Part shown: in pieces, positions 52,275 through 63,928 of the stretch
How the letters are laid out: each line of letters opens with the position of its first letter
Position numbering within the stretch: position 1 is the first letter of the stretch
DNA from: Escherichia coli
GTDB taxonomy: Bacteria; Pseudomonadota; Gammaproteobacteria; Enterobacterales; Enterobacteriaceae
Length of the DNA stretch: 64,000 nt
Direction: 5' to 3' (one strand)
Assembly: GCF_003334785.1 (NCBI RefSeq)
Contig: NZ_QOWV01000008.1
The notes under the pieces: model-generated
The model's input: only the letters and a program-made list of their open reading frames with translations
The model's database searches: none
What the model was told of the DNA's origin: nothing
Program-made: the position numbers and the translations under genes

Positions 52275-53255
52275 TTGTTGAAATATAGAAACTTCGTTGC
52301 TAAGAAGAAAAATTTATACCAAAACGAAGTGTCGTATGTTAAAAATTTACATATTGCACTATGCTTTGACCGTGAATTCATAATGCCAGCGGGTGTTGCA
52401 TTATATTCAATTATATCCAACAATAGACATATTAACCTTCATTTTCACCTTCTTATATCAGGCATAGAAGAAAAGGAGTGTTCAGCTTTTTACGAACTAG
52501 AAGGTCCTAATACATCAATATCTGTATATTATATAACTGATAAATTTGACATTAATCCGGATACATTAGTTCTTGGTATTCCTTTATCAACATGTTTACG
52601 TTTTTTAATCCCAGAAGTTATTGATGATAAAATAAATAAGATACTTTATCTTGACTGTGATGTCATATGTAATGGTCCTTTAGATGAACTGGTTGATTAT
52701 AATTTAAATGCTGATATTGCATGTGTAATTCCAGATTCGCCAGAAATGCAAGAACGTGTAAAAAAATTAGACTATGGCATTGAGTTTATTAATTATTTTA
52801 ATGCCGGGGTTATGTTTATTAATACCAGCGAATGGAAAAAAAATAATATAACACAAAAAGCGTTAGAAATGATCAACAGTGGAAAAGTATATAGGTATGC
52901 AGATCAGGATGTGCTCAATATTTTACTTAATGGACGAGTGCATTACCTTGATAAGAAGTACAATAATAAGACAACATTGTCAGTACGATGTGATGAAGAA
53001 CAAAAAAACTTGCCCAACACAATTATAATGCATTATGTTACCCAGAATAAACCATGGTACAAAATATTTAGAGCACAAAATTTTGATCATTATTTTTCAA
53101 ATTCTCCTTGGAAGAACCATAAAAGAAATCTAGCTCCATCATCAAGTGAGATTAGGTTAAAGTCTAAAGTTTTTTGGCTAGAAGGAAAATATTGTAAAGC
53201 CATTTCTTATTATTATAAGTATTTACTTGTTAAATTATTTGGCTTAAAGATTTAG
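52275..53255 (+). CDS. GT8-family LPS core glycosyltransferase (waaS position)
   Basis: 326 aa, AT-rich; GT8 motifs YLDCDVIC, FNAGVMFIN, HYVTQNKPW; identity within the waa family not resolved. Confidence 0.6.
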   Translation: MLKYRNFVAKKKNLYQNEVSYVKNLHIALCFDREFIMPAGVALYSIISNNRHINLHFHLLISGIEEKECSAFYELEGPNTSISVYYITDKFDINPDTLVLGIPLSTCLRFLIPEVIDDKINKILYLDCDVICNGPLDELVDYNLNADIACVIPDSPEMQERVKKLDYGIEFINYFNAGVMFINTSEWKKNNITQKALEMINSGKVYRYADQDVLNILLNGRVHYLDKKYNNKTTLSVRCDEEQKNLPNTIIMHYVTQNKPWYKIFRAQNFDHYFSNSPWKNHKRNLAPSSSEIRLKSKVFWLEGKYCKAISYYYKYLLVKLFGLKI

Positions 53256-60648: not shown

Positions 60649-61605
60649 TCAGGAATTGATTTTATTAAATACCGTTTCTGCAGTCAGATGAGCAAGATCT
60701 TTATCTGGTGCCCTACAAACCACCTGATTCTTCCCATATCCGCCAATTAATCCCGGATCGGTTGGTCCATAAACCGTGATATTCGGTCGATCCAGTGCTG
60801 CAGTTAAATGACTTAACCCAGTGTCTACCGATACCACGAATTTCGCTCCGGCCAGCACACGGGCAACACCTTCCAGACTCATCTTCGGCAATACTTCAAC
60901 ATAAGCAAATCCTTCCGCCAGTCGTTTCGCCCGTTTTTCCTCATGCGGCGCACCCCACGGAAGTTTAATGCGAATCCCTGAATCTGCCAGTAAACCAATC
61001 AATTCTCGCCAGTGTTCTTCCGGCCAGTGTTTATCATCACGGGTCGTCGCATGAAGAAATACGGCATATTCGCCAGCATCTGTAGGCAGGTTCGTCAGAA
61101 AATGCTGTGCGATAGCATAATCGCCCTGGGTTTGCGGTTTGCTATAGCCCAGACTTTTGGCAAAAAGTTCGCGGATGCGTTCTACGGCGTGCTGCTGTTT
61201 TGCAATATGATGTTTACGATTGTAAAACAGGCTGGCTAAAGGTTCGCGAGCGGTTTGCCAGTCCATTCCATGCTTTACGCCATGCGCCAGACGCGTCACC
61301 AGCGCCGCGCTTTTTACCAGCCCCTGAGCATCGATAACTGCGTCATAGTTCTCTGCTTGTAGCGCTTCACGAAACGCTTTGCGTTCAGCTTTTATGGGGG
61401 CCGAGAACCAGGCTTTACGCCAGCGACGTATTGCCACAGGAATAACTCGCTCAACGGCGGCGTGCCAGGAAGGAATCTGTGCGAACCCTTCTTCCACCAC
61501 CCAGTCAAACTTAATCCCTGGGATTGCCTGCTGGGCATCAGTGAGTGCGGGCAACGTATGGAGAACATCGCCCATCGACGATGTTTTAACGATCAAAACC
61601 CGCAT
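60649..61605 (-). CDS. waaC: LPS heptosyltransferase I
   Basis: 318 aa MRVLIVKTSSMGDVLHTLPALTDA. Confidence 0.9.
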   Translation of the reverse strand: MRVLIVKTSSMGDVLHTLPALTDAQQAIPGIKFDWVVEEGFAQIPSWHAAVERVIPVAIRRWRKAWFSAPIKAERKAFREALQAENYDAVIDAQGLVKSAALVTRLAHGVKHGMDWQTAREPLASLFYNRKHHIAKQQHAVERIRELFAKSLGYSKPQTQGDYAIAQHFLTNLPTDAGEYAVFLHATTRDDKHWPEEHWRELIGLLADSGIRIKLPWGAPHEEKRAKRLAEGFAYVEVLPKMSLEGVARVLAGAKFVVSVDTGLSHLTAALDRPNITVYGPTDPGLIGGYGKNQVVCRAPDKDLAHLTAETVFNKINS

Positions 61606-61608
61606 CCG

Positions 61609-62655
61609 TCAGGCTTCCTCTTGTAACAATAGAGAGTTGAGTTCTTCCAGCACGCGCTGGGGAGTAATGTCGATCAAGCTCTGGTGATAACCTTCTGCGG
61701 CGTCGCCTTTGCGTACTTTGTGATAGCCGGTAATCAGGCGGATCACGCGCGCTTTATGGGATAGCGGCGGTGTGAAGTCCGGGCTACTCGGACCATACAG
61801 GGCAACCAGCGGACGATTGAGCGCCGCCGCAACGTGCATCAGGCCAGAATCGTTAGTGACAATGGCTTTACAGGCTGCAATCAGGATAACCGCTTGATCA
61901 AGCTGTGTTTCCCCCGCCAGGTTCCGGCACCATGCCTGCTGCTCGGTATTTAAAGCGGCAAGAATCTCATTGCCCGCTTCATGATCTTTCGCCGAGCCAA
62001 ACAGAACCACTTGATAACCTTCATCAATCAGTTGCTTTGCCAGTTCCGCATAGTGGTAGTGTGGCCAGCGTTTTGCCGGACCAAACTCCGCACCCGGGCA
62101 AAAACCAATCATTGGACGTTCTGATGAAAGCGAAAATTGATTACAGGTATATGATTTTTCACCTTCGCTCACCTGCAACTGCGGCCATAACAATGGCTGC
62201 GGCAGATCTTGTGCGGTACGCATAATACCTTTGTCATAGGCCAGCGCCACATAGCGTTCCACCATCAGCGGCCAGGCTTCTTTATCCAGCACACGCACAT
62301 CGTTGAGTAAACCGTAGCGCATTTCGCCGCGCCAGCCGGTGCGATGAGGAATACCCGCGAAGAAAGGCACTAATGCGGATTTGAAGGAGTTGGGTAAAAC
62401 GTAGGCGCGGTCGTAACGTTTTTCGCGCAGGCTATGACCCAGCTTGCGGCGTTCGCCAATTTCCAGCGCCCCGTGACCAAGCGGCATAGGAATGGCTTCG
62501 TTAACTTCCGGCATCCGCGATAATAATGGACGGCACCATGCCGGTGCCATCACGTCGATTATCGCCTGGGGATAGCGCGCCTGGAGCGTGCGATAGAGAC
62601 TTTGCGACATCATCATGTCGCCAACCCATGACGGGCCGATCACCAATATTTTCAT
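61609..62655 (-). CDS. waaF: LPS heptosyltransferase II
   Basis: 348 aa MKILVIGPSWVGDMMMSQSLYRTLQARYPQ. Confidence 0.9.
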   Translation of the reverse strand: MKILVIGPSWVGDMMMSQSLYRTLQARYPQAIIDVMAPAWCRPLLSRMPEVNEAIPMPLGHGALEIGERRKLGHSLREKRYDRAYVLPNSFKSALVPFFAGIPHRTGWRGEMRYGLLNDVRVLDKEAWPLMVERYVALAYDKGIMRTAQDLPQPLLWPQLQVSEGEKSYTCNQFSLSSERPMIGFCPGAEFGPAKRWPHYHYAELAKQLIDEGYQVVLFGSAKDHEAGNEILAALNTEQQAWCRNLAGETQLDQAVILIAACKAIVTNDSGLMHVAAALNRPLVALYGPSSPDFTPPLSHKARVIRLITGYHKVRKGDAAEGYHQSLIDITPQRVLEELNSLLLQEEA

Positions 62656-62734
62656 TCACTTCATCCTTCAAGCTGTCTCTGCGGCGGCTGCCTGCGTTCA
62701 CTCCGGTCACTTACTTTTGTAAGCTCCCGGAGAT

Positions 62735-63715
62735 TCACTTAGTTGCTGCCTTGATACCGCTCGAATGATTTTGTGAATTTACGTTGATGTCGCGATTCAG
62801 CCAGGCCATGTATTCCGTTACGCCTTCGGCAACGGTTTTGAACGGTTTGTCATAACCCGCCGCGCGCAGATTCGTCAGATCTGCCTGCGTGAATGCCTGA
62901 TAGCGGCCTTTCAGTTTATCCGGGAACGGAATGTATTCGATCTGGCCTTTCTTGTGATAAGCAAGCGTTGCATCGGCTACCGCCTGGAAGGATTCCGCAC
63001 GACCAGTACCGAGGTTGAAGATGCCGGAAACGCCATTTTCCAGGAACCACAGGTTTACATCTGCCACGTCGCCAACATAGACGAAGTCGCGTTTAAAGTT
63101 CTCGCTACCTTCGAACAGCTTCGGTGATTCACCGTTATTAAGCTGGGTGTTGAGATGGAAAGCGACGCTCGCCATGCTGCCTTTATGGCCTTCACGCGGT
63201 CCATAAACGTTGAAATAACGGAAGCCAACAATCTGTGAGTTTGCTTCCGGCAGAATTTGACGAACATATTCATCAAACAGGAATTTCGAGTAACCGTAGA
63301 CGTTCAACGGTTTTTCGTACTCGCGGGATTCAATAAAGTCGGAAGTGCGACCGCCGTAAGTGGCTGCGGATGAAGCGTACAGGAACGGGATTTCACGCTC
63401 CAGGCAGTAGTGCAGCAGCTCCTTGGAGTATTGATAGTTGTTATCCATCATATACTTGCCGTCCCACTCGGTGGTGGAAGAGCACGCGCCTTCGTGGAAA
63501 ATCGCTTCGACATCGCCGAACTCTTCGCCAGCCATAATCTGGATCAGGAAGTCTTCCTTATCCATATAGTCTGCGATATTCAGGTCCACCAGGTTCACAA
63601 ACTTGGTGCCGTCTTTCAGGTTGTCCACCACCAGAATATCGGTGATGCCTTTGTCATTCAGGGCTTTAACGATGTTGCTGCCGATAAAGCCCGCGCCGCC
63701 GGTAACGATGATCAT
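62735..63715 (-). CDS. hldD: ADP-L-glycero-D-manno-heptose 6-epimerase, C-terminus apparently extended
   Basis: [23 protein letters not shown]...; ORF is 326 aa, ending ...[23 protein letters not shown] rather than the ...AWLNRDA I recall. Confidence 0.85.
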
Positions 63716-63928
63716 AACTGTAACCTTCGAATTGTGGAGTCAGAGACAATCTCAGACACGAATACTTCTATCATATCACTACACGGCGCTGGCTACAGCC
63801 ATTCACCGAAAGTGGTATGCCTGAGCGTGATTTATGCTTATTTTTTGACAAGTACAAATGCTTCATCTCGTATCAACCTATGGCTTTCGGTAATATGTGC
63901 TGAAATTTGCCCAGTCTGGAGAATCGCG

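Follow-up and report, generated by a model that had tools for sequence, protein, structure and literature searches.

An ERIC repeat at the hldD-waaF junction of Escherichia coli, with a hairpin that may couple waaF translation to hldD

The sequence analyzed here (the window) is a stretch of 64,000 nt from Escherichia coli contig NZ_QOWV01000008.1 (RefSeq assembly GCF_003334785.1), in which hldD (rfaD/gmhD; 62735..63715, minus strand) is followed by waaF (rfaF; 61609..62655, minus strand), the gene for ADP-heptose--LPS heptosyltransferase II, both taken from the list of open reading frames. Codons 1-309 of hldD (62789..63715, minus strand) specify the conserved body of ADP-L-glycero-D-manno-heptose 6-epimerase, as judged by the match to PDB 1EQ2, and the corresponding residues match the 310-aa chain of that entry at 100% identity. 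The terminal Ala of the 310-aa protein is swapped for 17 residues, a net gain of 16 that brings HldD to 326 aa, and the 17 extra codons with their TGA stop (62735..62737) occupy 62735..62788 of the minus strand. From this stop to the waaF start there are 79 nt (62656..62734). The 326-aa protein is annotated by NCBI PGAP as WP_000587766.1 and is found in exact form on at least 1000 public contigs.

Comparison with K-12 was made by four-way alignment. The rfaD genes of K-12-derived C600 and of Nissle 1917 are 933 nt long (310 aa, ending in NRDA) and rfaF begins 9 nt past their stop, which confirms the K-12 junction (310 aa, NRDA end, spacer of about 9 bp) as given in the first-pass annotation. 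That annotation had also described the hldD of the window as running some 16 codons further, with about 80 bp left before waaF; the lengths of 326 against 310 aa and the gap of 79 nt bear this out, and C600 and Nissle 1917 both lack the hldD 3' end and the spacing of the window. Codons 1-309 of hldD and the entire waaF are collinear with K-12 (97% DNA identity for hldD, 96% for waaF), and the 15-nt K-12 junction, GAC-GCATAAGAGCTCTGC-ATG, has 133 nt in its place. These 133 nt consist of a 9-10 nt linker between hldD codon 309 and the repeat (ATCAACGTA, with or without a final A; 62780..62788, minus strand), which diverges strongly among genera, and of one ERIC/IRU (RU-1) repeat some 127 nt in length. 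By position, the part that corresponds to the 127-nt consensus is 62653..62779 on the minus strand, its last three positions being the waaF ATG. Filled and empty sites differ by more than the ERIC itself, and the change is a replacement in which the 9-10 nt linker was added and GAGCTCTGC is gone; gain of the one and loss of the other are not accounted for by simple insertion of an ERIC. The first-pass suggestion of a small insertion was therefore essentially right, save that 133 nt strictly stand in place of 15. The terminal GCA-TAA of K-12 is absent from the window, and with the TAA stop removed by the replacement, the hldD frame continues across the linker and ends at the TGA in the 5' arm of the ERIC.

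ERICs are MITE-like imperfect palindromes of about 127 bp found in enteric bacteria. When the 133-nt junction was used as a query, it matched 2-17 places (median 11) in each of 5426 complete E. coli genomes, mostly over 122-127 nt, at 70-83% identity and in unannotated intergenic space. The places sampled were intergenic (hsdR-hsdM, queA-acpH, puuR-puuC, rhlB-gppA and pmbA-cybC), and five sampled paralogous copies aligned end to end with the junction element, from (T)ATACACAAAATCATTC to GAAGGATGAAGTGTATA. Of the E. coli paralogues, the hsdR-hsdM copy of K-12 comes closest, with 82.7% identity over 127 nt. The published 127-nt E. coli ERIC consensus was taken from Table 1a of Delihas 2007 (PMC2759123), which gives the Wilson & Sharp 2006 consensus as its reverse complement, and matched the plus strand of the window at 62661..62773 with 79.6% identity over 113 nt; since this match is to the plus strand, the ERIC has the Wilson & Sharp orientation on the hldD-waaF mRNA. 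Within the core at 62695..62738, each of the two primer regions of the consensus is matched with 3 mismatches (manual count), and the central inverted repeat, CTCCGGGAGCTTAC AAAA GTAAGTGACCGGAG (62701..62732, minus strand), lies in the ERIC-PCR primer region. On these sequence matches the junction is assigned as a single copy of the ERIC/IRU/RU-1 repeat family. A search of the junction against Rfam matched no curated ERIC family; it returned a chance match to REN-SRE and a match to RF02818 V_AS5 (Vibrio RNA AS5) at 62657..62780 with 29.7 bits (E = 2.8e-4), below the gathering threshold of 96 bits. Membership in V_AS5 was rejected on this sub-threshold score, and the match probably reflects the ERIC-like repeats carried by Vibrio genomes.

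The junction copy resembles the family (Sharples & Lloyd 1990; Hulton et al. 1991; Wilson & Sharp 2006) in its length of about 127 nt and its sequence, in being a long imperfect palindrome with a conserved central inverted repeat, and in belonging to a multi-copy set in transcribed intergenic space. It differs in being absent from K-12 and confined to one waa haplotype, in covering the hldD stop as well as the waaF start, and in having changed termini without a recognizable TA target duplication. Its ends read ATTCAC...GTGAAT where the paralogues have ATACAC...GTGTAT, a compensatory pair of changes, and its flanks are GTAA and TG, with no clear duplication of the TA that borders the paralogues on both sides; such flanks would fit an old, eroded insertion. 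Fusions in which an ERIC (RU-1) removes the stop of a conserved gene have been described for the Erwinia ECA3499 amidase and the ECA0168 threonine dehydrogenase (Delihas 2007, PMC2759123). As in those cases, hldD has lost its normal stop and its product is slightly lengthened at the C-terminus, beyond the conserved domain; in some lineages point mutations have introduced earlier stops. The described fusions, however, read a 42-aa frame in the reverse-complement orientation (PMC2759123), whereas the hldD frame enters the element in the opposite orientation and ends after 17 codons. The fusion cases listed by Delihas 2007 do not include hldD (PMC2759123), and no description of an ERIC with rfaD, hldD or waaF was found in the literature that could be searched. 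The junction combines a known element family with a known type of stop-codon fusion.

Among the 5426 complete E. coli genomes, the long junction was present at >=99% identity in 480 (about 9%) and almost all others had the short form, in keeping with the strain variation raised in the first-pass annotation. That reading stands as far as variation and insertion are concerned, and its third suggestion, a regulatory hairpin, is plausible; the identity of the insert as an ERIC, and its sharing across genera, had been missed. The waa cluster of the window has a K-12-like gene order with a WaaK-type GlcNAc transferase and a Salmonella-type RfaL, and we take it to be the R2 core type. The linked waaL type was found in 501 genomes, in 481 of them at >=99% identity, a near-exact match to the ERIC count of 480. 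Two genomes of the same core type, with a waaL allele of 97-98% identity, have the short junction, so that the ERIC marks a haplotype and not the core type itself; the long junction is almost always tied to this one waa core-type haplotype (WaaK with Salmonella-like RfaL). SNP density against three ERIC-less E. coli genomes was flat across hldD and waaF (3-8 per 100 nt), and an imported block around the ERIC was rejected on this flat profile, which has no breakpoint.

The site was then compared across species by scanning one genome per species, which returned 80 hldD loci. An ERIC was present at the identical site in 17 of the 80, mostly with the same distance of 133 nt from codon 309 to the waaF ATG; the 17 include one E. 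coli contaminant contig (L009). Among the carriers were Citrobacter portucalensis, C. sedlakii and other Citrobacter sp., Enterobacter hormaechei subsp. hoffmannii and other Enterobacter sp., Klebsiella oxytoca, K. michiganensis, Raoultella ornithinolytica, R. terrigena, Superficieibacter electus, Pseudocitrobacter faecalis, Phytobacter diazotrophicus, P. ursingii and Buttiauxella noackiae. Species without it included C. freundii, C. werkmanii, E. cloacae, K. pneumoniae, S. enterica arizonae and E. albertii, and the spacers of ERIC-less junctions were 1-16 nt. Carriers that depart in length include R. terrigena with a junction of 119 nt (internal deletion) and Citrobacter sp. Cu233 with one of 275 nt (nested insertion). 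Being common to many enterobacterial genera, the ERIC is old at the hldD-waaF site, and its patchy presence implies repeated loss or else recombinational spread. Empty junctions (about 33 types) were searched for an ERIC footprint; suggestive 9-10-mer matches occurred in three lineages (equaled in 3-12 of 500 shuffles), and the E. coli empty junction held no such 9-10-mer.

Conservation of the element was measured against its surroundings. The ERIC body has a mean pairwise identity of 0.87 across genera (all 55 pairs), compared with about 0.66-0.70 at third codon positions in the adjoining 300 nt of hldD and waaF and 0.51 in the 10-nt linker. Against L009, the ERIC bodies of ten other 133-nt loci are 87-97% identical, save one that is misregistered by an indel. 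By these comparisons the ERIC at hldD-waaF is conserved well beyond the neutral expectation. Homogenization or gene conversion by paralogues does not explain this, as the best E. coli paralogue reaches only 82.7%, and the divergent linker is evidence against recent short-patch import.

The C-terminal tail of HldD follows a different course from the nucleotides that encode it. It has 17 residues in eight loci, and in nine of the 17 ERIC loci stops cut it to 4-11 residues while the nucleotides 3' of these early stops remain conserved; in the set of 15 aligned orthologues, seven have tails shortened by stops to 5-11 residues, and the Buttiauxella tail has 15. An AlphaFold model built on a 16-sequence alignment to judge the tail had a mean pLDDT of 46 and is uninformative, and the solved HldD constructs are all of the 310-aa form, the tail being absent from every one. 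Its frequent truncation by stops indicates that the tail is probably a by-product without function of its own. That the 17 residues are instead a selected feature serving the localization, stability or oligomer contacts of HldD seems highly improbable: the tails of E. coli, C. portucalensis, E. hormaechei, C. sedlakii and Superficieibacter are almost the same, and public data contain many exact copies of the 326-aa protein, but the sequence is polar and of low complexity, the solved and active enzyme always has the 310-aa form, and truncation of the tail with retention of the downstream nucleotides places the conservation at the level of DNA or RNA.

To describe the element as RNA, positions 62654..62778 were folded, giving one long imperfect hairpin of 125 nt with an MFE of -51.7 kcal/mol. 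Shuffled controls (n=200) gave -30.6 +/- 3.5 kcal/mol (z = -6.0) and none folded as well, so that the stability of the hairpin is far beyond chance. At its tip lies cttacaaaagtaag (62710..62723, within the central inverted repeat), the palindrome that the first-pass annotation had correctly placed inside a longer imperfect inverted repeat. A consensus structure of 15 orthologues has 34 pairs with compensatory changes in 11, for example C-G to U-A at the hairpin base in Klebsiella and UUAC/GUAA to UGAC/GUCA near the tip in K. michiganensis. Being related by descent, the 15 orthologues do not amount to 15 independent trials. The sense strand folds better than its complement by 5-15 kcal/mol in 15/15 orthologues. 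This asymmetry was rejected as evidence of RNA selection specific to the locus, since the same orientation folds better in 5/6 paralogues whatever the direction of transcription.

The hairpin also contains the translation start of waaF. The 3' arm of the ERIC ends in ...GCUUGAAGGAUGAAGUGA-AUG, and within it GAAGGA (62664..62669, minus strand), 8 nt 5' of the ATG, is the sole Shine-Dalgarno of waaF and does not vary among the 15 orthologues. This Shine-Dalgarno and the A and U of the waaF AUG are predicted to pair with AUUCACAAAAUCAUUCGAGC in the 5' arm, with an unpaired probability of <=0.03 at most positions of the folded RNA. Forcing the first 69 nt, which reach 12 nt beyond the hldD stop, to remain unpaired mimics a ribosome terminating at that stop, and under this constraint the same positions were 0.5-1.0 unpaired. 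The hldD stop falls inside the 5' arm in 15/15 orthologues, at alignment columns 19-57 with the hairpin base at column 14, and in this model even the shortest tails would put the ribosome on the sequence that partners the Shine-Dalgarno. Neither a terminator-like nor a sigma-70-like site was detected in a scan of 62600..62800, and the stem is followed by GAAAAUAUUGG, without the U-run of an intrinsic (Rho-independent) terminator.

An ERIC with its linker has taken the place of the K-12-type junction; we consider it likely that its hairpin would couple waaF to hldD, and that the tail of HldD is a by-product of the arrangement. The ERIC would be transcribed within the hldD-waaF-waaC(-waaL) mRNA and fold as a long hairpin, the 3' arm of which holds the waaF GAAGGA and the first two bases of the AUG, while the 5' arm lies in the extended hldD frame. 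On wholly computational grounds, we infer that ribosomes finishing hldD would melt the 5' arm and so expose the waaF ribosome-binding site. Spacings of 1-16 nt are typical of coupled genes, and read-through would keep, and make obligatory, the translational coupling given elsewhere by spacers of that length; the ERIC may accordingly have been tolerated, and then maintained, because hldD read-through keeps waaF coupled to hldD. The lack of any predicted promoter-like or terminator-like site in the ERIC was counted in favor of this model. Unmasking of a sequestered ribosome-binding site by ribosomes is a classical mechanism of operons and RNA phage, with which the junction shares a Shine-Dalgarno and AUG paired inside the upstream reading frame; the junction differs in that the occluding structure comes from a mobile repeat, stop and start are 79 nt apart and the effect is predicted.

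Several observations weigh on the other side. A hairpin of about -50 kcal/mol might refold faster than a 30S subunit could bind, the stop-to-start distance being 79 nt, and the position of all stops within the 5' arm may be accidental, as the linker is no more than three codons long and the orthologues are related by descent. The similar ERIC at rhlB-gppA conceals the ribosome-binding site of gppA, with the upstream stop lying 18 nt before the ERIC; as no upstream reading frame invades this copy, unmasking by ribosomes cannot be a general requirement. The junction is also not a clean TA-duplicating insertion, which was counted against the same explanation.

Alternatively, the ERIC could be an inert relic of a selfish repeat, conserved only through the need for the waaF ribosome-binding site that it supplies, an account that we regard as unlikely though worth serious consideration. 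Such a relic would agree with the lack of an ERIC in about 91% of E. coli genomes, in most species and in two genomes of the same core type, with the variable and frequently truncated tail, and with tolerance of the deletion in R. terrigena (119 nt) and the nested insertion in Cu233 (275 nt). It sits poorly with the conservation of the whole body of about 123 nt, well beyond the Shine-Dalgarno (87-97% in most genera, against about 65% at third positions and about 50% in the linker, which neutral sequence of such age should resemble), and with the compensatory changes in 11 of the 34 pairs.

It was also considered that the ERIC might act as a determinant of mRNA decay or processing of the type reported for Yersinia, where ribosomes entering an ERIC that covers a stop codon block its folding and unmask an RNase E site; here such decay would degrade the hldD part of the transcript faster than the waaF-waaC part. 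This seems rather doubtful. RNase E prefers AU-rich single-stranded motifs, and by eye the 3' arm, GCUUGAAGGAUGAAGUGAAU, is without one. Yersinia ERICs that overlap stop codons reportedly modulate mRNA level (De Gregorio et al. 2005, as described in reviews). The hldD-waaF copy is like them in overlapping the stop of the upstream gene in an operon, with entry of the ribosome into the arm expected; activity in Yersinia is tied to the B orientation and to an RNase E site in the right-hand TIR, with a lower level of the upstream transcript. The coverage of the hldD stop, with the TGA at 62735..62737 inside the 5' arm, and the conservation of the ERIC past the neutral expectation would both agree with a decay function, whereas the sequence differences between E. 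coli and Yersinia ERICs count against it. The decay and coupling models are compatible and do not exclude each other.

Recent import of the E. coli copy, together with core-type genes, from a Citrobacter- or Enterobacter-like donor in place of vertical descent was judged improbable. Identity to the ERICs of Citrobacter portucalensis and Enterobacter hormaechei is 96-97%, against 82-89% for the genes on either side, and the E. coli copy is linked to the waa haplotype with Salmonella-like RfaL and WaaK. Against import, hldD and waaF are E. coli-like up to the edge of the junction (96-97% identical to K-12) without a sharply bounded foreign block, and the linker, which homologous recombination would have carried along, is only 40-50% identical to that of the donor genera. 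Finally, a role as terminator or attenuator, or as bearer of a promoter, splitting the operon between hldD and waaF is hardly credible in spite of the very stable hairpin, given the lack of a U-run after the stem and of any terminator-like or sigma-70-like site in 62600..62800, and with waaF an essential step for completion of the core and served by no other obvious promoter.

The ERIC explains a recurrent difference in length, 310 against 326 aa, in the conserved LPS enzyme HldD, and gives warning for annotation against taking the tail for a functional domain or a sequencing error. Within E. coli the junction marks one waa core-type haplotype almost perfectly, and this haplotype appears to include ST167-type clinical lineages. 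The same junction with and without an ERIC, within one species and across genera, constitutes a natural experiment suited to testing whether E. coli-type ERICs affect translation or mRNA stability. Beyond the coupling proposed above, it is conceivable, if speculative, that the ERIC has been domesticated as a cis-acting RNA device, a regulatory hairpin that sets the HldD:WaaF ratio by locking the waaF ribosome-binding site and is opened only by the ribosomes translating the hldD extension. If true, this would explain the identity of 87-97% in most genera and the invariable loss of the ancestral stop, as well as the supply of ribosome-binding sites by ERIC 3' arms at gppA and acpH; the 3' arms of ERICs would then be portable ribosome-binding sites gated by structure.

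Window coordinates are used throughout unless a locus is named. Within the interval separating kbl from hldD (63716-63928), yibB (htrL), which K-12 carries at this position, was absent; the kbl start lies approximately 214 nt from hldD, and the same kbl-hldD arrangement was observed in two other genomes (L090 and L091). Differences from K-12 became sharply denser towards the 3' end of waaC (60649-60750), reaching 15-26 per 100 nt within its final ~300 nt. This rise marks the boundary of the core-type-specific region, approximately 2 kb downstream of the ERIC. A 326-aa ORF at the K-12 rfaS position (52275-53255, plus strand) was matched weakly to the GT8 LPS 3-alpha-galactosyltransferase model (184 bits, under the cutoff of 461) and is a putative core-type-specific glycosyltransferase. 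On the strand opposite the waaF start, an ORF of 80 aa (62526-62768, plus strand) runs through the ERIC in the hydrophobic frame and resembles the RU-1f frame reported by Delihas (Delihas 2007, PMC2759123); it is probably not a gene.

Enterobacterial hldD-waaF sequence was recovered from two database records, JAEWTL010000099.1 (L009, labelled 'Bacillota MAG'; 100% identical to the window) and CACSKA010000004.1 (L023, labelled 'Chryseobacterium sp. 18061'), so both records look mislabelled or contaminated.

Some hldD-waaF spacers that lack an ERIC, namely those of Buttiauxella/Dryocola (L079, L085-L087), Mangrovibacter (L084) and Pseudocitrobacter vendiensis (L067), harbour stretches of 9-10 nt that exactly match sequence from inside the ERIC (GCAGG[C/T]AGCC, TATCAAGGC and GAAGCCAAC). 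Approximately 33 junction types were tested, and for each match only 3-12 of 500 shuffles were as good; these short matches may be remnants left behind when an ERIC was deleted, or may have arisen by chance. At the Citrobacter sp. Cu233 junction (275 nt; ERIC with insertions at 2425-2710 of its locus, L013), the ERIC was found to carry two nested insertions of ~70 nt each, one per arm, each opening with the 30-nt motif GTGACAAAT..GTCTGGAAC..ATTTGAAC; the two copies are 87% identical to each other. Cu233 hldD reaches a stop after 4 tail codons, that is, codons past codon 309.

The ERIC 3' arm, the half of the hairpin proximal to waaF, was compared at three sites: waaF (62653-62669, minus strand), gppA in the rhlB-gppA interval (L007:1501-1621) and acpH in the queA-acpH interval (L005:1501-1629). 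The annotated ATG of each of these genes immediately adjoins the 3' arm (GAAGGATGAAG[T/A]G..). ERICs in this orientation therefore repeatedly provide the downstream gene with its Shine-Dalgarno sequence and with part of its start codon.
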